From Chlamydiales bacterium (lineage in GTDB: Bacteria > Chlamydiota > Chlamydiia > Chlamydiales > JAAKFR01), in assembly GCA_020831465.1 (NCBI GenBank), contig JAFIGI010000012.1:2073-66072 (forward strand): a DNA stretch of 64,000 bases, given 5' to 3'. Every line of letters starts with the position of its first letter. Within the stretch, counting starts at the first letter, position 1. Made by a program: the position numbers and the translations under genes. Below are positions 4,802-62,114 of this stretch, one piece after another. The notes beneath the pieces were generated by a model. It saw only the letters and a list, made by a program, of their open reading frames with translations, was not told where the DNA came from and ran no database searches.

Positions 4802-5173
4802 ATGCCAACGATCAATCAGTTAATTCGGAAGGGCCGAGGACAAAAGGTCCGACGAAAAAAATCACCCGCTCTGCAGCGCTGTCCGCATAGACGGGGGGTT
4901 TGTCTTCAGGTGAAAACAAAAACACCGAAAAAGCCGAACTCCGCTTTGCGTAAAGTAGCATGGGTGAGACTCTCCAACGGGCAAGAGATTATTGCTTACA
5001 TCGGAGGGGAAGGGCACAACCTCCAAGAGCACAGCATCGTTCTGGTGCGCGGAGGACGTGTGAAAGACCTCCCCGGTGTGCGCTACCACATTGTGCGCGG
5101 AGCGTTAGATTGTGCGGCCGTAAAAGACCGCAAACAAGGAAGATCGCTGTACGGGGCAAAACGGCCCAAATAA
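4802..5173 (+). CDS. rpsL: 30S ribosomal protein S12
   Basis: [12 protein letters not shown]...[18 protein letters not shown] is unmistakably S12. Confidence 0.97.
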
Positions 5174-5178
5174 ATGCC

Positions 5179-5289
5179 ATGTGCGAGTTTTTTGCCATGC
5201 AGGAGGCAATAGCCTTGTGCCATTTCCGACAAGAGAGGATTGATATGGCAAAGTCGCAGCTGCTCCTGAATGGCAGAAAACTCGCACAT
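5179..5289 (+). repeat. long imperfect hairpin in the rpsL-rpsG spacer
   Basis: The 27-nt arms at 5179-5205 and 5263-5289 are reverse complements with 2 mismatches. One mismatch is a G-U wobble on the + strand RNA. Weaker pairing continues inward. Confidence 0.6.
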
Positions 5290-5463
5290 TGCGTAAATAG
5301 CGTAGTAACGCTGGGATGGTTGAAAAATAGCCCTCCTAGTTCGAAATCTCCTTTTTCAGTGAGAAGGGAGATTTCGCACGGTCTTTATAAAAGACAGGTG
5401 AAGAAAAGCGGCTTCCTAAAATATTTATGTTTAAGAACTAAGCTAATGAGTTAAGGTTGAACT

Positions 5464-10594: not shown

Positions 10595-10642
10595 ATAGCA
10601 GAATCAGTTGAAAATGTAAATTTTTCAACTGATTCTGCTATA
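10595..10642. repeat. palindromic intergenic repeat, copy 1 (short form)
   Basis: ATAGCAGAATCAGTTG is fused to the full right arm AAAATGTAAATTTTTCAACTGATTCTGCTATA. The element nearly fills the convergent brnQ/MOMP spacer and abuts the MOMP stop codon. Confidence 0.8.
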
Positions 10643-11503
10643 TTAGAAACGTAGCTGCATGTTGACATGAACCGCTTTTTCATCTCCCCAACGCCCCTCA
10701 ACTGTTGCACCAAGCCCTTCACAAAAGGTGATAGTCAGGCCTGCGGCATATCCCCAATACTTATTATTCCCCAGTTTGAAAAGTGTGGCTTGATCATCAT
10801 CGGGTCCTACAACAGCCTCGCGGAAATCTAATTGATTACCTGACCATTTCAGAGCAAGATAAGGAATAGCGGAAACTCCCGAACACCCAACCTGGAGCAA
10901 ATAGGAAGCTCCAATACCAACTTGCCACTCGGAATACCGCATATCGATCCGACCATCAGGGTATTCAATAAAGACCCCTTCAACCTGTGCGGTTTTAAGG
11001 CTGGGTTTAGTATAGAAATATTGACCTTCAATTCCGAAAAAGAAAGAGTTATAATCCCAGATAGTCAACCGACCGCCAATACTCCAAGAAAAATCTGTCT
11101 CACTAGCAAGTTGGATTTTCGAGTCTGCGATGAGTCCGAAAATTGCAGGATTCGCATATAGATCAATGTTTGTTGCTCCAAGAGTTGTAAAGAGGTCAAA
11201 TCGGTTGCAAATATTCAGTGCAAAATAAGCGGCATTTGTAAAGAGCATCGTCTCGTCAGCATCGGCATGATCTTCGACATCCAGTTCCATATGCCTGTTG
11301 AATACATAGTCTCCGTAAAACCCCACCCTAAAGCTCCATGCGTTGCACCAGTTGAAACAAGGATTGAATCGACTAGAGCTCACATCGCAATTTTCAAGAA
11401 GTACACCCTTACGGTATAAGCTTGCATCCATCGGATTTCCTATAGGAAGAGCGTAAAGGTTTGAAAATAAAAAAACAGATAGAATCAGTATCCATTTCTT
11501 CAT
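10643..11503 (-). CDS. MOMP-family (chlamydial major outer membrane protein-like) porin
   Basis: Signal peptide, then ALPIGNPMDASL...NPCFNWCNAWSFRVGFYGDYVFNR and C-terminal KAVHVNMQLRF. These parallel C. trachomatis MOMP LPVGNPAEPSL...[24 protein letters not shown]...AAHVNAQFRF, quoted from memory. Confidence 0.85.
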   Translation of the reverse strand: MKKWILILSVFLFSNLYALPIGNPMDASLYRKGVLLENCDVSSSRFNPCFNWCNAWSFRVGFYGDYVFNRHMELDVEDHADADETMLFTNAAYFALNICNRFDLFTTLGATNIDLYANPAIFGLIADSKIQLASETDFSWSIGGRLTIWDYNSFFFGIEGQYFYTKPSLKTAQVEGVFIEYPDGRIDMRYSEWQVGIGASYLLQVGCSGVSAIPYLALKWSGNQLDFREAVVGPDDDQATLFKLGNNKYWGYAAGLTITFCEGLGATVEGRWGDEKAVHVNMQLRF

Positions 11504-11604
11504 GGAGCCTCCAAAAATGCCTTTCTTAAATTGAATTCAGACTGTTAAATAGTCTCTTGGTTGTCAAGAAAAGAATTGAAATTATATTTTTTGCCTAAAG
11601 TGAG

Positions 11605-12084
11605 TTATTCAATAGTGGTGATGATGCAGAAACACTGGAGCCCGAGTCCGCAGCCGAAATCTGTCAGCCCCTCGCCCGTTGTGGCGGTGATACCAATTTG
11701 GGTTGGATCTAGGTTCATTTCTCGGGCAATGTTTTCTTTAAGCTCAGGGATACGTTCGAGCAGCTTCGGGCGTGAGGCCTCTATTGTCAAGGCTACATGA
11801 GTGATCTGCTGCTTACCTAGCGTTTTAAGCGCCTCATGCAAGTAGACGCTGCTATCGGTAATCCCCTCCCTTTCCAAAAGCTCATCGGCCCGCTTGCCAA
11901 GGATAATCTCCCCGGTGATCGAAGAGATCGCGTTGCAGATCGCATGAAAGATCACGTCTCCATCAGAATTGGCTCGAAATCCAGGGACATCCTCAAAGAC
12001 TATGCCTCCTAATAGGCAGGGTTTTGTTGATTCCTCGTGAAGAAAGCGGTGGCTGTCTTGGCCGATGCCTGTTCTAAATTTCAT
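11605..12084 (-). CDS. ispF: 2-C-methyl-D-erythritol 2,4-cyclodiphosphate synthase
   Basis: 159 aa. [14 protein letters not shown]...[14 protein letters not shown] is IspF. Confidence 0.92.
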
Positions 12085-12173: not shown

Positions 12174-13865
12174 TTAGTAGACGTGTGTGGCTTCAGTATC
12201 GGTTACCGGAGCGCCCAACCCATCTGAGTTTAGGGTCGCTTCAGCCCTGGCATCTCCGACTGAGACCGCTCTAACGCGGACGCAGTACTCAACGCATTGC
12301 TTAGGATCAAGCCTTTGGATAGGCTCGAAAATAACCGTCTGTCCTGAAATTCTTCCTCTTGTAGGACCACTCACGCTTTCAGGCTGCAACTCATCTGTGA
12401 ACGTGATCTGCAGCTGAACGTTTGTATCTTCCGCGCTTCCGCGGTTAGAGATGCAAACTTTGTAGGATGTCATGTCATCTCCATCGAGACAGACCGGATC
12501 GCAAGTATCCACCATACACATATGTGTCGCCGGAATTCCTTTCCAGCATGTGACGGCTTCCGCGCATGTTACACACGGTCCACAGTCTGAATTGGTCGAC
12601 ACGGTTACCTTATTTGTCAAGCAGCCGGCAACTTGCGATTGCAGCGAGACATGGAATGTCTTGGTTTCGCCGGGGCAGAACTCAGGGATGCACCAGATTG
12701 CTCTGTTGCAGCAGATTTCAGCTCCCGGAGCATCAACTATGACGGTTCCGATTGGAGAGACGTCATCCACAACAACATCCCTTAAGACCAAATCACCCGG
12801 GTTTGTAACCGTAATCGTGTAGTCGACGGTCTTGCAGATGTAAGCCCAATCGGGGCCGGTTTTAGTAACTTCAACGCATGGCTCATTCACAAGCGTAGAC
12901 GCTTCTGCAGAGCATATAGGACCTCCGCAGTAAGTGACAGTCGCAACGTTAGTTACACATCCGCGCTTGGTTGCGCAAAAGTCAACATTGAAGCATCGGC
13001 TTTGACCGGGACACAAATCGCCCAACTGATAGGTAAGGCAAGTCATTCCGCTCGCATGAGAAAGGCCGTCCGGTACTTGGTCTTGGACGACAACATCATA
13101 AGCTGTTGCTGAACCGGAGTTGCATACTTCGATCCGGTAGGAAACCGGGCAATATAAGCACACGCACTCAGGACCGCACTTTCTGATACAGATTACAGGT
13201 TGGCCGCAGTTTGTGTAGGCGCAAATTTGCGGACATGCGCATACAGTAGCCGCAGTTGGACAGCAACCTTCTTTCATCGGACGCACCCAGACGCAGATTC
13301 TCTGGGACTCGCCGCAGTTCATGTGAGGGAATTCCCACTGAAGCGAGTTGTGCTGGTCAGGCTGTGCGGGTGGATCGCTTCTGATAAACTCAGAATCACC
13401 AGGCAGCGTTTGACGTACGATAATGTCTGCACATTCCTTTTGAGCAGTTATACTGATCTCAATAGGATAGGGCGAGCCGACTGTTGCGTACTCGGGTGCC
13501 CTTTGGCACAACTCGACGACACGATCGTCAGATGTTTGGTAGGCTCTCATATTTCCATAGCAACGCTCCCCGGGGAAGGGTTGCTCGCACTGGCCGCTTC
13601 CGCAAGGATAGTAACTAGGGTCGCATGGAAAATATATGTTATCTTCCGGGCCACTAAGCTGTGGACATGGAGCCGGACAATATGGTTCGCTAATAGGCGA
13701 CGGAGGGCAAGAGTCGTATCGTGGCGGACATGGGTCGCACGTCGGTGGACATTTTACTTCGCAAGGCGAGCAGAAACTATCGCACCAGTTACGATTACAA
13801 CTTGCCAAGCAAAACACGCTCATCAAAAAGAGAGCTGCTACAGCAGTTCGTAAGGGTTGAATCAT
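12174..13865 (-). CDS. omcB: 60-kDa cysteine-rich outer membrane complex protein OmcB
   Basis: 563 aa. Signal/lipobox FCLASC, a very Cys-rich N-terminus, then repeated DUF11-like beta modules (VTVTNPGD, VCNSGSATAYDVVV). OmcA-like genes lie upstream, as in Chlamydia. Confidence 0.9.
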   Translation of the reverse strand: MIQPLRTAVAALFLMSVFCLASCNRNWCDSFCSPCEVKCPPTCDPCPPRYDSCPPSPISEPYCPAPCPQLSGPEDNIYFPCDPSYYPCGSGQCEQPFPGERCYGNMRAYQTSDDRVVELCQRAPEYATVGSPYPIEISITAQKECADIIVRQTLPGDSEFIRSDPPAQPDQHNSLQWEFPHMNCGESQRICVWVRPMKEGCCPTAATVCACPQICAYTNCGQPVICIRKCGPECVCLYCPVSYRIEVCNSGSATAYDVVVQDQVPDGLSHASGMTCLTYQLGDLCPGQSRCFNVDFCATKRGCVTNVATVTYCGGPICSAEASTLVNEPCVEVTKTGPDWAYICKTVDYTITVTNPGDLVLRDVVVDDVSPIGTVIVDAPGAEICCNRAIWCIPEFCPGETKTFHVSLQSQVAGCLTNKVTVSTNSDCGPCVTCAEAVTCWKGIPATHMCMVDTCDPVCLDGDDMTSYKVCISNRGSAEDTNVQLQITFTDELQPESVSGPTRGRISGQTVIFEPIQRLDPKQCVEYCVRVRAVSVGDARAEATLNSDGLGAPVTDTEATHVY

Positions 13866-14084
13866 AGGAAACTCCTATAAGTTTGATTAGAGACTAACTT
13901 TTTCCCAACAGTGACCTGGTAGAAATGTTCACCTCGGATTTCAAGGCCGTTATCAGGCTTTGAACCCTGAACACTTTCTTTTCGACTCCTAGCCATTCAT
14001 TTTCTCCTACTTGTGGATTCAGGCCTGAGGGAAATCCCCTCAGCACCTGAATACATTTCTACCTGCGGTTGTGCCTCTTTTCGA

Positions 14085-14327
14085 TTACGGGCAAACCGGA
14101 CATCTTGGTGGGCACGCTGGCGGGCAAGCCGGTGGGCATGATGGCGGGCAATATTGCGCAGGTGGGCATGATGGCGGGCAAGCCGGTGGGCAAGCTGGTG
14201 GACATGCTGGTGGGCAATATTGCGGACAAGGTGGACATGCTGGCTGACAACATGGGTTGCAGCTTGCCAAGCTGAACATGCTCATTACAAATAGAGCGGC
14301 GAAAAACATTTTCAAAGACCGTTTCAT
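14085..14327 (-). CDS. omcA: OmcA-like small cysteine/proline-rich lipoprotein, copy 1
   Basis: Start at the ATG at 14327 (M26 of ORF 14085-14402), preceded by AAGGAG. MKRSLKMFFAALFVMSMFSLASC is a lipobox, followed by CPPA/CPPS repeats. Confidence 0.75.
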   Translation of the reverse strand: MKRSLKMFFAALFVMSMFSLASCNPCCQPACPPCPQYCPPACPPACPPACPPSCPPAQYCPPSCPPACPPACPPRCPVCP

Positions 14328-14851
14328 ATGAAACTCCTTAAGTTGATTTGAGTCTAGTTGTTTAATAAAATGCCCTCTTATACAAATCTGGGGGCTCTGC
14401 ACTCTTCGGTACAGTCCTTATGAATCTATTATCAAATGAAAACTAAAATTTTATCAAACTTTTTTATAATAAAACTTTCTAAAATCGCACTCTCTTTTTT
14501 GAATAGTTAGCTATCTTCATGTCATTCTCAAAGACTTATGTGCGCACTCTTCTTCTGTCGGAAAAAAATTACGATCCCCCTTTATGCAACCGTTCATTCC
14601 GTTCATTTCAGCAAATTTGAATTTCTAATCGCGAATCGTAGTCGATTATGTTTGAAATGATAGAAATTGGGCGCAAGATTTTGTTGAAGCAGGAAATGCG
14701 CAGAGCAAATCTAACCTCAATCCAGTTAGCGAGTTCGAGCACAATGTCCTAGATAAAAAGATACGGAGCAATCTTAGTCAGATTTATAAGAGTGTTTTGA
14801 AACTCATATTTTTAAATATGAGCAAGAAACGATTTTGTAAAGATGAGCGGT

Positions 14852-14950
14852 TATAGCAGCATCAGTTGAAAAATTTACATTTTGACGATCGGTCAAGCCC
14901 GGGAGCTTTGACGCGGTGAAAATGTAAATTTTTCAACTGATGCTGCTATA
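14852..14950. repeat. palindromic intergenic repeat, copy 2 (long form)
   Basis: Perfect 32-nt arms TATAGCAGCATCAGTTGAAAAATTTACATTTT (14852-14883) and the reverse complement (14919-14950) flank a 35-nt centre containing CCCGGG. Confidence 0.85.
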
Positions 14951-15048
14951 GATTAAGGGTATGAATCGACTATTAAAGAAAGAGCCTTGTGGAGTCAAAA
15001 AACCGATCTCCACAAGGCATATCTACCTGCGCTTATTCCAAGCACAAA

Positions 15049-15381
15049 TTACGGACAACGAGGCGGGCATCTTGGCGGACACTTAGGTGGACAAACCGGT
15101 GTGTATACTGGGCATCCTGGCTCGCATCGAGGGGTCGGAGAACATGGACCTGGACAAACAGGACAAGCTGGCGGACAATATTGCGGACAAGGTTCAGGGC
15201 ATGGGCAAGGTTCAGGACATGGACAAGGCGGACATGTAGGTGGACAGCAAGGATCGCACTTAGGTGGACATCTCCATCCACATGGATCGCAGAAGAAATT
15301 ATTCGATCTTCCACAGCTTGTTAAGCTAAACATGCTCATCACAAACAGAGCGGCGAAAAACATTTTCAAAGAACGTTTCAT
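15049..15381 (-). CDS. OmcA-like small cysteine/proline-rich lipoprotein, copy 2
   Basis: Start at the ATG at 15381 (M5 of ORF 15049-15393). The signal peptide MKRSLKMFFAALFVMSMFSLTSC is nearly identical to copy 1. The mature part is CPP/CPxP-rich (CPPKC, CPPTCPPCPCPEPCPCPEPC). Confidence 0.75.
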   Translation of the reverse strand: MKRSLKMFFAALFVMSMFSLTSCGRSNNFFCDPCGWRCPPKCDPCCPPTCPPCPCPEPCPCPEPCPQYCPPACPVCPGPCSPTPRCEPGCPVYTPVCPPKCPPRCPPRCP

Positions 15382-15552
15382 ATGAAACTCCATTGGGTTG
15401 ATTAGAGTCTTAAAATGCCCCCTTATTATTCCTTTTGGAGAATCTGGATCCTTCAGGTGACATTCCTTATAAATTTATTATCAAACGAACAAAAAATTTT
15501 ATCAAACTTTATTTACAACAACCCATTTAAACAATTTTTCTATCTATAAAAG

Positions 15553-27034: not shown

Positions 27035-27795
27035 TTACCTAAGCGTCGAGTTCGTTTTTGAAAATCTAGCACAGCATCCATTAGATCGCGAGGGGTAAAG
27101 TCGGGCCACAAAACCTCGGTGGTATAAACTTCGGTATAGGCAAGCTGCCAGAGAAGGAAATTGCTGATACGCTTCTCTCCGCTAGTCCGGATCAGCAATT
27201 CAGGATCGCGATAAGGGGCTGTATCCAAATAGCTGTTGATCACCTCTTCGGTAACCTCCTCTTTTTCCAAATCCCCCCGTTCAATCGCCCCCATCATCGA
27301 GAGAAGGGCCCGGCGCATCTCATCGCGCGCCCCGTAATTCATCGCTAACACAAGGTCGATTGTCGATCCCCTGGTCGTTGCTTCGCGGGTTTTTTCGATC
27401 TCGTCTTTAACACTTTGGGGAAAGGGGGTGAGATCGCCTATCGTCCCAAATCTGACCCCCATCTCGATCATTCTTGCGCGGTTTTCACGCAAATAGGTTT
27501 TGAAAATCGTAAAGAGCGTTTGGATTTCCAGCTTTGGGCGCTTCCAATTCTCTGTGGAAAAGCTGTAGACCGTCAGAACTTTTACACCCAAATCGGAGGC
27601 TGCCTCTAAAATTGTGGTGACGATCGATGCCCCGGCCCAATGCCCCTTCATCGGATTCAAACAGGATTGGCGCCTCGCCCACCGTCGGTTTCCATCGGGA
27701 ATAATTGCGATATGTTGAGGCACAGGATGGCGCTGAACCAAATAGAGCTCCTCATCGGAATAAAAAGAAGAGTGGACAGCGCACTCAAAAGACAC
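27031..27795 (-). CDS. uppS: undecaprenyl diphosphate synthase
   Basis: 254 aa. HIAIIPDGNRRWA and RTSGEKRISNFLLWQLAYTE are UppS motifs. Confidence 0.93.
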   Translation of the reverse strand: MSFECAVHSSFYSDEELYLVQRHPVPQHIAIIPDGNRRWARRQSCLNPMKGHWAGASIVTTILEAASDLGVKVLTVYSFSTENWKRPKLEIQTLFTIFKTYLRENRARMIEMGVRFGTIGDLTPFPQSVKDEIEKTREATTRGSTIDLVLAMNYGARDEMRRALLSMMGAIERGDLEKEEVTEEVINSYLDTAPYRDPELLIRTSGEKRISNFLLWQLAYTEVYTTEVLWPDFTPRDLMDAVLDFQKRTRRLGK

Positions 27796-29017
27796 CGCTT
27801 ACCTCTTTTTCTTCAACAAAAATATCGCGCATCATCACAGCGCATTCCCGGCCGGGCCCCATCGACAAGAGGCTGATTGGCACGCTCAACAACGATTCAA
27901 TGCATCTTAAGTAATGCTTTGCATTGGGCGGTAGGTCGTTGAAATCGGTAATCCCCCTCAAAGAGGTCCGCCACCCCGGGAACGTTTCGTAAATCGGTTC
28001 CAATTCTTCAAAAGCTTCGGGATCTTTAGGGAGGCAGTGGCAAGGGCTTCCGCGCAAACGATAGCCTACGCACATTTTAATCGATTTCAACCGGTCGAGC
28101 ATGTCGAGCTTGGTGAGCGCGATCGAATCGATCCCGTTTAATCGGATCGACTCGCGCGCCAGAACAATGTCGAACCATCCCAGACGCCGTTTTGAACAAG
28201 AGGAAAGGTCGGGGATATTCAAATCATCTTCGGTAGGCAGCGGTCCTTCCCCGACCCTCGTCGTGTAGGCCTTGAAAACACCTAATGTGTGGTCAATCCG
28301 TGTCGGCCCGATTCCCGCACCGTACAAGACTCCTGCAGCGGTTGTCAAAGAGGGAGCTACGAAGGGATAAGTTCCGTAAGTCGGATCCAAAAAAGTGCCC
28401 TGAGCACCTTCGAATACGACGGCTTCTCGTTTGCGCAGAGCCGTATCGATCATCTCCTCTACATTTCCTGTGAAGGGCAACAGGCATTCGCCAAATCTCC
28501 GATAGCGTTCGAATAGGGCTTCAAAAGCTATGGGTTCCTCAATCTGCTTATTTTTGACTGGAAGAATCCGTTCAAGAGCTCTTTTCAGAAGAGGCGGACG
28601 GACCAGATCGGCGATTCTAATGCCTTGCCGGTTAAGTTTGTCGGCAATACAGGAGACGATTTCTTGGCTACTTTCTTTATGATAGGAGTTCCTACCATGG
28701 TAGGGAAAGATCACATGGGCCGCTTCCGAAAGAAAGAGGCGTCCCTCTAATTGGATCTCCTGCCCTTTGAGATACTCTATCTCGCCCAGCAACGCTTCAG
28801 GATCGACTAGAGTCCCTGCAGCAATATAACACTGGGTATGAGGCGCTGTAATCCCTGAAGGAACCAAATAGAGTTCCCTATCTCCCTCTGCCGTATGGTT
28901 TTCGTTAGGGCCTCCCTGAGCCCGCACAACATGCCGCGCCTTGGCCGTCAACAGATCGACAACCCTTCCCTTCCCCTCATCGCCACATTGAGCTCCAACA
29001 ACTATGATAGCCGGCAT
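27785..29017 (-). CDS. adenylosuccinate synthetase-like protein (divergent)
   Basis: 410 aa. P-loop VVGAQCGDEGKG, FEGAQGTFLD, TRVGEGPLPTE, TKLDMLD and SMGPGR are conserved. The IGTTGRGIGP and GATTGRRRR regions of canonical PurA are not recognisable. Confidence 0.7.
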   Translation of the reverse strand: MPAIIVVGAQCGDEGKGRVVDLLTAKARHVVRAQGGPNENHTAEGDRELYLVPSGITAPHTQCYIAAGTLVDPEALLGEIEYLKGQEIQLEGRLFLSEAAHVIFPYHGRNSYHKESSQEIVSCIADKLNRQGIRIADLVRPPLLKRALERILPVKNKQIEEPIAFEALFERYRRFGECLLPFTGNVEEMIDTALRKREAVVFEGAQGTFLDPTYGTYPFVAPSLTTAAGVLYGAGIGPTRIDHTLGVFKAYTTRVGEGPLPTEDDLNIPDLSSCSKRRLGWFDIVLARESIRLNGIDSIALTKLDMLDRLKSIKMCVGYRLRGSPCHCLPKDPEAFEELEPIYETFPGWRTSLRGITDFNDLPPNAKHYLRCIESLLSVPISLLSMGPGRECAVMMRDIFVEEKEVSGVF

Positions 29018-33827: not shown

Positions 33828-35558
33828 ATGGAGTCAACAAATGAACCGATCTGGATCTTTCCCGAGGAAAATCCATCCTGGTTAGAACAGATCATTCAAG
33901 AATTTCGCATCCATCCGATTACCGCGCAAATTCTCGTCTCGAGAGGATTTCCCACGCTTGGAGACATCCATCATTTTCTCTATAGTAAGTTGCCCGATCT
34001 TTATGATCCGAAGCAGTTTCTCGATATGCCAAAGGCGGTGAACCGCATCACGGGCGCAGTCAAAAACGGGGAGGGCATCCTCATTTATGGAGATAACGAT
34101 GTCGACGGAATGACCGGGACTGCGCTGCTAGCCGATTTTCTGAAGAAAATCGGTGGAAAAGTTTTCTATTATGTACCCAACCCCAATGTCCAGCGGGAAG
34201 GGCTTTTTCTAGACGCTCTGCAATTTGCTAAAGATCACAACTGTACGCTCATGATCACGGTTGATTGCGGGATCACGGCCTCCAAAGAAATCCAAAAAAT
34301 CATCAACGAAAAGATCGACGTGATCATCACCGACCACCATGAGCCAACCGATAAAATCCCCAACTGCATCGCCACCCTCAATCCTAAGCTCCTTAATCAG
34401 ACCTACCCAAACCGCGACTTGACAGGCGTAGGCGTCGCTTTTAAGCTGGCCCATGCCTTGACAAACCACCTGGCTTCTATAGAGGAGCTTCCGCCAAAAA
34501 AGATCGACCTCAAAGTATTTCTCGATCTCGTTGCCCTCGGAACGATTGCCGACATGGGCGTCCTTCTGGATGAAAACCGGATTCTCGTTCGATACGGAAT
34601 CAAGCAGCTGCAAAAGACGAAGCGGATGGGGCTGATCAAGCTTTTTTCTATCTGCGGTTTGGAGCGTAATGAGTTGAATGCTGTCGATGTTGCCTCTAAG
34701 ATCGCTCCGCGTATGAACAGCCTCGGAAGGGTTGCCGATCCAACTAAAGGGGTAGAACTTCTCCTCGTCCGCGACGAAAAGAAGGCAACCGAACTTGCCA
34801 AAGAACTCGATCTTTTTAATATGGAACGACAAAAAATCGAGCAGATCGTTTCGGGGGATGTAGAAAATACTTTGGAGGAGAACCCCTCAATCGTAGAAAA
34901 CAAAGCGATCGTCATCAGCTCTACTAACTGGCATCCGGGCGTCATCCCTATCATTTCGGCTCGCATCGCAAAGGTTTATAACAGGCCTGCCGTTATCATC
35001 GCGATCGACAACGGAATCGGAAAAGGGTCGATCCGCACCATCCGAGAATTTCCTCTTCTCCCCGTCCTAAAAAAATGCAGCGACCTCTTCCTCAACTATG
35101 GAGGGCACGACTTTGCTGCCGGCCTAACGATCAGAGAGGAGAATATCGAGAAATTTAAGAAGCGCTTCCTCCATGCGGCCAATTCTTCTCTGCGCGAACA
35201 AGATATTATTTCTAAACTTTACCTCGATGCCCATGCTAACTTTAAGGACCTAACCTACGATCTTCTTGCTTCCCTCGAGCTTTTCGAACCCTACGGCAAT
35301 GAAAACTCGCAGCCCATCCTCTATTGTGAAGCCAAACAGGCCTGGCCACCTAAAATCATCGGGGGAACACATCTCAAGCTCTATCTGGAGCAAGGGGACC
35401 GTATGCTGGAGGGAATCGCTTTCGGGATGGCTGAGCGGCGCACTCAATTAAGAAGAAAAGATCTCTCTCTCCGTATCGCCTACACTCCCCAAGTCAACCG
35501 TTTTCATAACAAAAGCAGCATTCAGCTACTCATCCGGGATTTTCAAATCCTCGAATAA
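33828..35558 (+). CDS. recJ: single-stranded-DNA-specific exonuclease RecJ
   Basis: 576 aa. DHH family motifs GDNDVDGMTG, VDCG and ITDHHEP. Confidence 0.9.
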   Translation: MESTNEPIWIFPEENPSWLEQIIQEFRIHPITAQILVSRGFPTLGDIHHFLYSKLPDLYDPKQFLDMPKAVNRITGAVKNGEGILIYGDNDVDGMTGTALLADFLKKIGGKVFYYVPNPNVQREGLFLDALQFAKDHNCTLMITVDCGITASKEIQKIINEKIDVIITDHHEPTDKIPNCIATLNPKLLNQTYPNRDLTGVGVAFKLAHALTNHLASIEELPPKKIDLKVFLDLVALGTIADMGVLLDENRILVRYGIKQLQKTKRMGLIKLFSICGLERNELNAVDVASKIAPRMNSLGRVADPTKGVELLLVRDEKKATELAKELDLFNMERQKIEQIVSGDVENTLEENPSIVENKAIVISSTNWHPGVIPIISARIAKVYNRPAVIIAIDNGIGKGSIRTIREFPLLPVLKKCSDLFLNYGGHDFAAGLTIREENIEKFKKRFLHAANSSLREQDIISKLYLDAHANFKDLTYDLLASLELFEPYGNENSQPILYCEAKQAWPPKIIGGTHLKLYLEQGDRMLEGIAFGMAERRTQLRRKDLSLRIAYTPQVNRFHNKSSIQLLIRDFQILE

Positions 35559-35632
35559 TATAGCAGAATGAGTTGAAAAATTTACCTTTTCACGCAGGTC
35601 AAAATGTAAATTTTTCAACTCATTCTGCTATA
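35559..35632. repeat. palindromic intergenic repeat, copy 3
   Basis: Arms TATAGCAGAATGAGTTGAAAAATTTACCTTTT (35559-35590) and AAAATGTAAATTTTTCAACTCATTCTGCTATA (35601-35632). It starts immediately after the recJ stop codon. Confidence 0.85.
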
Positions 35633-35643
35633 CCTATTGGTAT

Positions 35644-35675
35644 AAAAAAACGCCCATATTTAAAAATATGGACGT
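35644..35675 (-). terminator. rho-independent terminator downstream of the euo-like gene
   Basis: On the minus strand: ACGTCCATATTTTTAAATATGGGCGT hairpin followed by TTTTTTT (the A run at 35644-35650). Confidence 0.6.
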
Positions 35676-35695
35676 CTTAAGAGAAGGGAGCCGAA

Positions 35696-49430: not shown

Positions 49431-49486
49431 CTTTTTTGTTATTACCTTGTAAATCTTAAGTAGCAATCTTCATGGTTGCTGCTTTG

Positions 49487-49629
49487 GGTGTGTCATCAAT
49501 TAGAGGAGGCTGGACATTTAGAGATTGCTGCGGTAAAATCGTCGATCTCATGCGTAGGACTTTATGGGGGGATAGGCAATTTTACCCAAAAAGCTCCAAT
49601 GTACACCTTCCTCTAATTGATGACACACC
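49487..49629. repeat. long inverted repeat (143-bp imperfect hairpin) upstream of the yaeI-like gene
   Basis: Perfect 21-nt arms GGTGTGTCATCAATTAGAGGA (49487-49507) and TCCTCTAATTGATGACACACC (49609-49629). Weaker inner complementarity (CGGTAAAATCG vs CAATTTTACCC). It ends 2 nt before the ATG at 49631. Confidence 0.6.
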
Positions 49630-49630
49630 T

Positions 49631-50584
49631 ATGTCTCTCTTTATTGATTTTCTGAGTATTGCTTCCGTTCTCGGAATTTGGCCTCGTTTTATTGAACCTA
49701 AAATGGTTTCCCTAACCGAAACTATATGGAATTTAGGTCCGGGTCAAAGTCATTTGGACAACCTCTCGATTGTCCACATCAGCGACCTCCATTTTCATAA
49801 GGATCTTTCCCAAAAATTTTTGGACAAAGTTGTCCGCCGGATCTGCCGAAAACGACCCGATTTAATCCTTTTTACCGGGGATCTCCTTTGTTACGGCCGG
49901 TTGGAGGAGGCAAGCCGCCTGAAACGCTTTCTTGAAAGATTGGAAGCCCCTTTGGGGTGTTATTGCACTTTAGGGAATCACGACTACAGCCGGTACGTCA
50001 CTCTAAACCGGGAGGGGAAGTATGATTTGCTCCCTCCTCTAAACCCGATTCGAGGCGTGCTCCGCGGCCTGGCTGCACTCATCTTATCTTCTCCAACGGG
50101 AAAGGGAGTTACTGATGCCGTCCTTTCCATCCCGCTTCATCAAGAGCTATGTGCGCTTTTAAGCGAGACCCCTTTTCAATTGCTTGAAAACGCAACGGTG
50201 ACCCTGCCTATTGGATTGAATATCACAGGCTTAGGAGATATGGCTCTTGGCAGGTGCCGACCTGACACCGCCTTTGCCGGCTACAATCGGGAGTACCCCG
50301 GAATGATTCTCTCGCACAACCCCGACTCATTTCCCCTGCTTCTTCCCTATCCCGGCGACTGGATTCTCTCGGGCCATACTCATGGAGAGCAAATTCACTT
50401 TCCCTGGCCGAAATGGCTCAACCGGATCTCCCAAAAGCTTGCACGCCTCGAGAATCGCGGGTATACTCGTGGGCTCTTTACAGTCGGAGATAAAAAAATG
50501 TATGTAAACAGAGGTTTGGGGTGCCACAAGCCCTTCCGCTTCTGCTCAATCCCTGAAATAAACGTCATACGAACGAAAAGATGA
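49631..50584 (+). CDS. YaeI-like metallophosphoesterase
   Basis: VHISDLHFH, GDLL, GNHD and GHTHGEQ calcineurin-like phosphoesterase motifs. Start placed at M54 of ORF 49472-50584 because the upstream 53 codons coincide with the inverted repeat. Confidence 0.8.
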   Translation: MSLFIDFLSIASVLGIWPRFIEPKMVSLTETIWNLGPGQSHLDNLSIVHISDLHFHKDLSQKFLDKVVRRICRKRPDLILFTGDLLCYGRLEEASRLKRFLERLEAPLGCYCTLGNHDYSRYVTLNREGKYDLLPPLNPIRGVLRGLAALILSSPTGKGVTDAVLSIPLHQELCALLSETPFQLLENATVTLPIGLNITGLGDMALGRCRPDTAFAGYNREYPGMILSHNPDSFPLLLPYPGDWILSGHTHGEQIHFPWPKWLNRISQKLARLENRGYTRGLFTVGDKKMYVNRGLGCHKPFRFCSIPEINVIRTKR

Positions 50585-61812: not shown

Positions 61813-61886
61813 CGCACCGAAGAGGACTCGAACCTCTAACCACCTGGTTCGAAGCCAGGTACTCTATCCGATTGAGCTATCGGTGC
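61813..61886 (-). tRNA. tRNA-Arg (anticodon TCG)
   Basis: Hand fold of the reverse complement: acceptor GCACCGA/TCGGTGC, D arm GCTC-AATCGGATA-GAGT, anticodon stem CCTGG/CCAGG with loop CTTCGAA, T arm AGAGG-TTCGAGT-CCTCT, discriminator G. Confidence 0.9.
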
Positions 61887-61948: not shown

Positions 61949-62114
61949 CATGAACCTATCCGCAAAGTGATGAACTTGCTTTTTGACTCTTTTTACGCAT
62001 CTTTTCGAGGCAGTGAGCACTCCTACTTACTTAAGTATGTCCTGCTCACTACCTCGAAAACCTGCGAAAAAATCCAACTAAAATCAAATCCACCACTTTA
62101 CGGATAGGTTCATG
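61949..62114. repeat. nested inverted-repeat element (candidate structured RNA) between tRNA-Arg and recO
   Basis: Outer 21-nt arms 61949-61969 / 62094-62114 with 1 mismatch. Inner 18-nt arms 62002-62019 / 62043-62060 with 1 mismatch. The stems are separated by 32- and 33-nt unpaired segments. The outer right arm covers the recO ATG. Confidence 0.6.

Follow-up and report, generated by a model that had tools for sequence, protein, structure and literature searches.

In this study we describe a family of A+T-rich palindromic repeats located in a 64,000-nt stretch (hereafter, the window) of the metagenome-assembled genome (MAG) of an uncultured Chlamydiales bacterium (GCA_020831465.1, JAFIGI010000012.1, positions 2,073-66,072 of the forward strand). 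The family is represented by three palindromic copies, namely c1 (48 nt), c2 (99 nt) and c3 (74 nt), and by one solo arm, at four loci. It is real and apparently undescribed, and we regard it as fairly likely to be a miniature transposable element of the type called MITE (for miniature inverted-repeat transposable element), a known kind of genomic parasite. So far no evidence has been obtained for a cellular function of the repeat, and the substitutions that are mirrored between the two arms of a copy are probably mechanistic, i.e., caused by template switching, and not selective.

Anatomy of the repeats and their MITE-type features

The common unit of the family is a 32-nt, A+T-rich arm with the pattern TATAGCAG-N-AT-N-AGTTGAAAAATTTACATTTT, which differs by only 0-2 bases among the four unrelated loci and has a G+C content of 7/32 nt (22%) vs. 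44-52% in the window. Allowing up to three mismatches, the pattern was matched five times in the window, compared to 0.00 expected matches in 100 dinucleotide-preserving shuffles of the same DNA. This result and direct reading of the sequences confirmed the three copies and one half copy, their arms and their coordinates, as described in an earlier sequence-based note on this DNA (hereafter, the original prediction). The copies read TATAGCAG...CTGCTATA from end to end, with TA at both termini, and the complementarity of their arms is 97-100%. Their fold z-scores range from -8.6 to -14 against shuffled controls, and c2 and c3 are the two top-ranked inverted repeats of the whole window according to the repeat finder.

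The fullest form is c2 (14852-14950, no strand assigned), which consists of perfect 32-nt arms (14852-14883 and 14919-14950) carrying the variant C at position 9 and separated by a 35-nt centre, GACGATCGGTCAAGCCCGGGAGCTTTGACGCGGTG. The centre is partly self-complementary and the hairpin pairing extends imperfectly into it; the RNA fold of this copy reaches -57.5 kcal/mol (z = -10.8). In c3 (35559-35632, no strand assigned) the 32-nt arms surround a 10-nt centre, CACGCAGGTC, and carry the variant G at position 12 as well as a single unmirrored mismatch at position 28 (C on the left, A on the right). Finally, c1 (10595-10642, no strand assigned) comprises the complete 32-nt right arm and the outer 20 nt of the left arm, forming a perfect 20-bp stem with a 7-nt loop. 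This copy, which the original prediction called a short form, is not shortened symmetrically. The solo arm (23487-23510, plus strand) corresponds to the outer ~24 nt of the arm (AATATCAGAATCAGTTGAAAAATT; nhmmer E = 0.023) and has 19 consecutive bases (CAGAATCAGTTGAAAAATT) in common with it. A partner arm was not found within 190 nt, the alignment score being equal to the shuffle mean (P about 0.5), and the site was thus rejected as a decayed full copy. The solo arm also reads TTGAAA-17-TATAAG, which is promoter-like.

The copies appear to be related to each other by deletion. The inner arm boundaries of c2 and c3 are common out to 35 nt, indicating that both derive from one amplified derivative and are not in situ products or independent deletions of a larger element. 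The sequence of c1 is exactly that of a c2-like copy minus the 50 nt between two TGAAAA direct repeats. The 10-nt centre of c3 has the same ends as the centre of c2 (CAC...GTC), which is consistent with an internal deletion without proving one. Central deletion followed by arm loss is the expected decay route of long palindromes.

Bacterial MITEs have been characterized as non-coding elements of less than 200 bp, which are A+T-rich, carry terminal inverted repeats (TIRs) and 5'TA3' termini, are accompanied by target-site duplications and yield transcripts with long stem-loops (PMC2229807). The copies of the window are 48, 74 and 99 nt long and contain no open reading frame (ORF) of at least 50 aa, with only ORFs of 24-30 aa overlapping c2. 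Their 32-nt arms constitute TIRs with 97-100% complementarity, TA is found at both ends and the arm has 22% G+C. The family is also dispersed over four loci, and all its copies are missing from the orthologous spacers of relatives. Since all the features that could be tested are present, the family was classed as MITE-type. In agreement with the original prediction that no ORF or transposase is associated with the repeats, no member of the transposase, recombinase, integrase, RAYT or TnpB families was detected in the window; this search employed Pfam on 30 window ORFs, while the region of 8-46 kb was judged via synteny with Pfam-annotated relatives.

Based on these features, a transposase encoded elsewhere in the genome may have copied the element into TA-containing, A+T-rich sites, and insertions would have survived where they are tolerated, i.e., immediately 3' of stop codons or within variable spacers. 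Copies would then decay from 99 to 74 to 48 nt through loss of the centre by slipped-strand deletion between short direct repeats, as shown for c1 and suggested for c3, until a whole arm is lost and a solo arm is left behind. In replication, intramolecular template switching could correct imperfect inverted repeats to perfect ones, so that a substitution in one arm would be either reverted or copied to the other arm, yielding private mirrored changes without selection. When transcribed, perfect stems of 20-32 bp in 3' untranslated regions (UTRs) would be good substrates for RNase III or barriers to 3'-exonucleases.

Occurrence in relatives and a diverged arm next to an insertion sequence

The relatives used for comparison are syntenic loci with 78-93% protein identity (about 70-83% DNA identity) to the window. 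No arm was found in the 133 kb of syntenic sequence that represents seven relatives (L040, L043, L044, L046, L120, L121, and L123). All copies are missing from the orthologous spacers, i.e., there are presence/absence differences between genomes, which is the comparison that the original prediction had proposed. The arm was also absent from the recJ 3' flank of L126. A TATAGC-N20-GCTATA motif in the L120 spacer was spotted by eye as a possible decayed copy; it has no statistical support and was not used as evidence.

Exact arm cores were additionally scanned against three sequence collections. Among GTDB species representatives only 39 singletons were retrieved, which is about the chance expectation; they belong to unrelated phyla and none to Chlamydiae. 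The exact-core scans of the JGI metagenomes and of the IMG/VR viral sequences gave 0 matches each. A gapped palindromic scan of the JGI metagenomes returned 71 chance hairpins with nothing in common beyond the required seed, the best of them agreeing at 20/42 extra positions. Rfam 15 at the gathering threshold did not match any copy and recognized only two tRNAs in the window, and literature searches did not turn up any MITE-type repeat described in Chlamydiae. The empty Rfam, literature and collection searches are consistent with the view of the original prediction that this is not a described element, and the repeat family appears to be restricted to a lineage, as judged from the sequences covered.

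A diverged arm was found in L119, a relative with 90% RecJ identity originating from Logan sample SRR26074208. In this contig the 29-mer TATAGTCAAATAGATTGAAAATTTTACAT starts 68 nt after the recJ stop and agrees with the window arm at 22/29 positions. This is the top match across the DNA of the relatives (about 247 kb), the runner-up reaching 19/29. A match of 22 was reached by 0/20,000 shuffles of the 96-nt tail of L119. These values were obtained by scanning for ungapped identity, with shuffled and real DNA as nulls; an nhmmer profile built only from the window was too narrow to score the L119 arm (E = 17). The L119 contig ends at this point and its last 30 nt begin at (A)TATAG, the same outer boundary as in the window arm. 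In Logan contigs all 31-mers are kept distinct (PMC12424806), and a flank contig can therefore extend no more than 30 nt into a unit that is repeated or palindromic, indicating that the unit begins at (A)TATAG in L119 as well. The family is thus present, in a diverged form, in at least one other lineage, where it probably exists in more than one copy.

The recJ-euo spacer of the same organism is represented by L119 (3035-3130) together with L125 (2493-2801), and L124/L125 hold an insertion sequence (IS) with a DUF4277-type transposase. No mirror arm was found in the euo-side contigs (L124 and the longer L125); past the euo terminator they read AGCCCTCATTTCGCAACTCA. An ORF starting MKDECLAEYSSKDLDHLGLVAGMCRSL lies about 140 nt beyond AGCCCTCATTTCGCAACTCA and shows a weak match to DUF4277 (E = 0.02), the N-terminal domain of IS1634/IS4-type transposases. 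On the recJ side, the 29-mer of L119 that resembles the arm is immediately preceded by the inverted match AGCCCACATTTCGCA, and CTGAAGC is found on both sides. An IS thus occupies the recJ-euo spacer of this organism.

The proximity of the two features brings up the possibility that the window palindromes are scars of a full-length IS, i.e., terminal or subterminal repeats left in situ after deletion of the interior. In the organism of L119 the arm-like 29-mer lies beside IS-end-like sequence, with a DUF4277-type transposase gene in the same spacer, and all four sites of the window are prone to rearrangement. We consider this explanation quite improbable nevertheless. Independent in situ deletions would not reproduce the inner boundaries that c2 and c3 share out to 35 nt, and no other part of the IS resembles window DNA. 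Furthermore, the repeat boundary inferred from the k = 31 break in L119 is (A)TATAG, 18 nt away from the putative IS end, which lies upstream. L119 terminates 30 nt beyond TATAG instead of 30 nt beyond the IS-like end, while L124 stops exactly 30 nt into that putative end. For L119, these break positions favour the reading that the TATAG unit is an independent repeat, located next to the IS or nested within it.

The L119 sequence also bears on the possibility of an assembly or library artefact in the MAG, for example a linker of palindromic sequence or a chimera formed by fold-back. Both fold-back chimeras and palindromic junction adapters are encountered, and the source of the window is a MAG. 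An artefact is hardly credible, though, as the copies carry private substitutions and different centres, and both flanks are unique collinear gene sequence instead of inverted duplicates. Moreover, a diverged copy exists in an independent assembly from another sample, and the exact scans detected no identical sequence in unrelated assemblies.

Known systems and the origin of the mirrored arms

The nearest analogues of the family seem to be the Correia elements (CREE/NEMIS) of Neisseria, by resemblance and as a lead on the mobilizing enzyme, not by membership. They are ~70-155 nt long compared to 48-99 nt here, and both families are non-coding and dispersed (PMC2649163, PMC2229807). Both have ~26-32-nt TIRs starting TATAG[C/T] and TA termini (PMC2649163), as well as length variants due to internal deletion, solo repeats and sites next to genes. 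The symmetric ends of Correia elements form RNA hairpins that are bound or cleaved by RNase III, and no cognate transposase is known for them (PMC2649163, PMC2229807). In an end-anchored comparison, the window arm agrees with the best Correia variant at 18/27 positions (shuffle P = 2e-4), and at 12/21 positions outside TATAG (P = 0.02); the published Correia search tolerated at most 3 mismatches (PMC2649163). The window arm does not follow the 26-nt Correia repeat TATAG[CT]GGATTAA(CAAAAA/ATTTAAA)..., and the Correia core (CCGGTACGG / TCAGGACAA ends and a site for IHF) is absent from the centres of c2 and c3. In addition, the hosts of Correia elements belong to a different phylum, and their TA target duplication has no clean counterpart demonstrable in the window family. 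The common TATAG[C/T] terminus might conceivably mark the same mobilizing enzyme. An IHF site in the window arm was also considered by eye and rejected, since the consensus is not matched.

Similarities were also noted with the ERIC/IRU and RUP MITEs. These are perfect or imperfect palindromes that span about 100-127 nt, lie in intergenic regions that are transcribed and, like the window family, have TA termini, internal-deletion forms and orthologous-spacer occupancy that differs between species. RUP has been linked to a TA-targeting IS630-family transposase and tends to land in or near IS elements (PMC2229807), which may be compared with the L119 copy adjoining an IS. However, ERIC/IRU and RUP show no sequence similarity to the window family, their TIRs are 7-9 nt vs. 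32 nt here, and no matching IS was found here.

A further explanation is that of a REPIN-like element which travels as single-stranded DNA with the help of an IS200/IS605-type enzyme or a RAYT (HUH/Y1), in which case the hairpin would be the transposition substrate and solo arms would be singlets of the repetitive extragenic palindromic (REP) sequence. REPs typically keep their intergenic positions between species while their sequence is specific to each species, a pattern that is matched by the L119 copy in the same recJ-euo spacer, and a TnpB/IS605-type gene lies near the c1-orthologous site of the relative L043. REPINs are extragenic hairpins of similar size and, as in the window family, combine inverted conserved ends around a variable spacer with compensatory, mirrored changes, singlets and genome-specific sequence (PMC3116915). 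REPs, on the other hand, are defined by a GTAG or CGTC head on an imperfect palindrome of 20-40 nt (PMC3733652), while the window arm starts TATAGCAG and contains neither tag. The arm is A+T-rich and does not by itself form a short G+C-rich REP stem-loop, and no Y1_Tnp/RAYT or TnpA is present in the 64-kb window. The TA termini and 32-nt TIRs are typical of MITEs mobilized by DDE transposases. The ends of the L043 TnpB element are dissimilar to the arm, and this element was thus rejected as a parent. Taken together, REPIN-type mobilization is improbable. In the 'REP/MITE-like' label of the original prediction, the MITE part is supported (short, non-coding, TIRs, TA ends, unrelated loci), whereas the REP part is not (no GTAG/CGTC head, no REP stem-loop, no RAYT in the window).

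The L043 gene itself (12551-13744, 397 aa) is of the TnpB type, with HTH_OrfB_IS605, OrfB_IS605 and Cas12f1-like TNB domains. It is situated between ispF and the outer membrane protein (OMP) genes of this relative, whose OmcB is 80% identical, and its region has no similarity to the window palindromes. Other candidates were rejected by eye, i.e., an integron attC site because the orientation and sequence of the R''/R' cores mismatch, hix/gix-type invertase and loxP/dif-type sites because such sites require a short spacer of constant length, which does not fit centres of 7, 10 and 35 nt, and a protelomerase target site because no gene supports it. No convincing outward sigma-70-type promoters were seen in the arms, which were inspected by eye without a systematic scan.

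Concerning the mirrored arms, positions 9 and 12 were found to be identical in both arms of each copy, as the original prediction had pointed out: position 9 (left/right) is A/A in c1, C/C in c2 and A/A in c3, while position 12 is C/C, C/C and G/G, respectively. By our own estimate, independent parallel substitution at mirrored sites is very unlikely, and the arms of a copy must therefore be coupled in some way. The original conclusion that the hairpin is 'therefore preserved' is valid as a description. It does not hold as a requirement for selection, since template-switch correction yields the same pattern. Template switching is documented, at hotspots in E. coli thyA and lacZ reporters, to convert quasipalindromes into perfect palindromes (PMC7202029), and it predicts mirrored private substitutions like those of the window. 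It is a mutational process and not an element family, and it is not known from Chlamydiae or for 32-nt arms that are 7-35 nt apart. Mirrored changes across hairpin arms are also frequent in REPINs, another mobile family (PMC3116915). With three copies only, we infer that template switching explains the mirrored substitutions better than selection does.

The alternative is a selected functional RNA or DNA hairpin (bidirectional stop, RNase III site, mRNA stabilizer or protein-binding site) in which the mirrored changes are truly compensatory. c1 is the sole hairpin in the 59-nt brnQ/MOMP spacer, where the window MOMP-like gene lacks the G+C-rich, T-tract terminators seen in the OMP genes of L043/L044. 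c1 and c3 are placed exactly at stop codons, and a related arm exists in the same recJ-euo spacer of a second lineage. Documented effects of RNase III and RNase E on Correia and ERIC elements (PMC2649163, PMC2229807) also fit a role in RNA. Yet a single mismatch in a 32-bp stem of -57 kcal/mol is cheap, and selection for exact mirroring would thus be weak. The centres vary (7, 10, and 35 nt), one copy is a solo arm, most relatives lack the element at the same spacers and no Rfam family was matched. We therefore view a selected hairpin as unlikely.

As for bidirectional termination, which the original prediction had suggested, the terminator scanner did not call any copy on either strand. The stems are A+T-rich and no T-tract follows them, the copy tails being ATATTAGA, TGAGATTA, GATTAAGG, ACCGCTC, CCTATTGG, and TTATTCGA. 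Furthermore, c2 lies beyond the hairpin of omcA2 itself and c3 beside the conserved euo terminator, so that an additional terminator would be redundant there. This part of the original prediction is hence not supported by the sequence, while the copies may have an mRNA-processing or stabilizing effect.

Another route to the same arm pattern is that each copy was rebuilt from one arm via a snap-back (hairpin-capped) or fold-back-primed intermediate, and not by cut-and-paste. Single-arm rebuilding would produce mirrored private substitutions, varied centre lengths through imprecise resolution of the tip, solo arms and several unrelated palindromes in a lineage. We assign it a low probability, similar to that of REPIN-type mobilization.

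Several observations weigh against a MITE-type origin with template switching. The window yielded neither a transposase nor a full-length IS whose ends match. In the organism of L119 the sole nearby transposase (DUF4277-type, E = 0.02) belongs to an IS with an inferred end (AGCCC-CATTTCGCA) that differs from the arm. A clean empty site for a target duplication is missing, as relatives differ by larger indels at every site. The dinucleotides next to c2 and c3 are TA/TA, which is compatible with a TA duplication, and those next to c1 are AA/TA. The family is represented by only 3.5 copies, all within 25 kb, and a high genome-wide copy number is assumed. The template-switch account rests on just two mirrored substitutions and one unmirrored substitution. 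Finally, if the L119 copy (and perhaps a decayed L120 copy) occupies the same spacer by descent, the repeat may be an old resident element evolving in concert within genomes without recent transposition.

Insertion sites, neighbouring genes and other palindromes

ORF coordinates showed that c1 and c3 are located at stop codons in convergent spacers and c2 between two omcA-like genes, exactly as originally predicted. c3 begins on the base directly after the recJ TAA (35556-35558). The right end of c1 (10642) touches the stop of the MOMP-like gene (10643-10645, minus strand), while its left end starts 11 nt past the brnQ-like stop (10583), the convergent brnQ/MOMP spacer being 59 nt. c2 is situated between two omcA-like Cys/Pro-rich ORFs. 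The gene identities RecJ, OmcB, Chlam_OMP and Euo/HTH_17 were upheld, and brnQ was assigned via synteny with PF05525 genes. All four sites coincide with structural differences from the relatives; for a role of the repeats as recombination substrates, which the original prediction had suggested, this evidence is circumstantial only.

At c3, the 93% relatives are homologous up to 35555 and again from 35641 onwards. The recJ-euo spacer (35559-35695 in the window, where it holds the c3 palindrome) contains a type III effector-like gene (PF04518 Effector_1) in L040 (11711-12482), L041, L042, L121 (10466-11247), L122, and L123, while in L120 (86%) it is bare and 149 bp long (11732-11880). Given these varied contents among relatives, this convergent spacer is a hot spot for insertions, and c3 is not necessarily the scar of a gene loss.

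c2 lies within 14486-15017, a foreign-looking stretch without homologue in L043-L047, for which no plasmid or phage match was found. A 34-aa ORF of HTH-like appearance in this stretch gave no Pfam match even at E <= 1. The surrounding region (14054-15521) holds tandem omcA-like genes on the minus strand (14085..14402 and 15049..15393), whereas relatives have one omcA. The promoter and signal-peptide regions of the two genes are duplicated (73-92% identity), with 532 bp of unique DNA between them.

Next to c1, the MOMP-like gene (PF01308) and its promoter region (10643-11604) are inverted relative to L043 and L044. In these relatives brnQ is followed by one or two OMP genes of the same orientation, all of which have a promoter of the TTGACATAACC type as well as a canonical terminator. 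An OMP gene is missing from the MOMP position of L046, and ispF is inverted in L044.

The solo arm is found in a 540-bp A+T-rich spacer between the paralogous genes 22406-23395 and 23935-24849. The paralogues (329 and 304 aa) have no Pfam match and share C-terminal motifs (e.g., ...FKQYTG...). In relatives this locus holds one or two genes of differing length (405 and 406 aa in L040). Another gene, purA (adenylosuccinate synthetase, 27785-29017), is located between the prenyltransferase gene and secDF in the window and L121, but not in L040/L120, and no palindrome is present there.

If the family is active, it would mark recent plasticity of the genome in an environmental lineage. Its copies are located near genes for surface proteins (MOMP-like, OmcA/OmcB), effector-like genes and the developmental regulator euo, and since they mark structural differences beside such key genes, they may seed or mark rearrangements and alter 3'-UTR processing. 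A more general caution is that 'compensatory' patterns in DNA palindromes can stem from template switching and are not an automatic sign of structural selection. On the practical side, perfect 32-nt arms break k = 31 assemblies, and they could serve as strain-typing markers.

If long palindromes in general are defined by arms of 20 nt or more with 88% or higher complementarity and by a loop of no more than 120 nt, the 64-kb window contains five of them vs. none in the 133 kb of seven relatives. This enrichment is specific to the lineage and involves three or more unrelated sequence families. The palindromes described below are unrelated in sequence to the c1-c3 family. A 143-nt palindrome at 49487-49629 has 21 perfect pairs (32-nt arms at 91%) and is situated at the 5' edge of ORF 49472..50584, which encodes a metallophosphoesterase; the palindrome may be upstream of the true start or in an N-terminal extension, the Metallophos domain beginning only at residue 99. 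An imperfect palindrome of 166 nt (61949-62114) contains nested arms, one pair of 35 nt (86%) and one of 30 nt (87%). It takes up almost the whole spacer that separates recO (62112, plus strand) from a tRNA gene (61813-61886, minus strand). Finally, a 117-nt palindrome (5176-5292; arms of 27-30 nt with 90-93% complementarity) begins 3 nt beyond the stop codon of rpsL (5171-5173). Alignment with the rpsL-rpsG spacers of L044 and L046 revealed it as a clean insertion of about 130 nt, and AAATA on both flanks could be a target duplication. These unrelated palindromes, including the rpsL insertion, indicate that insertion of long palindromes at gene 3' ends is general in this lineage and not specific to one family.

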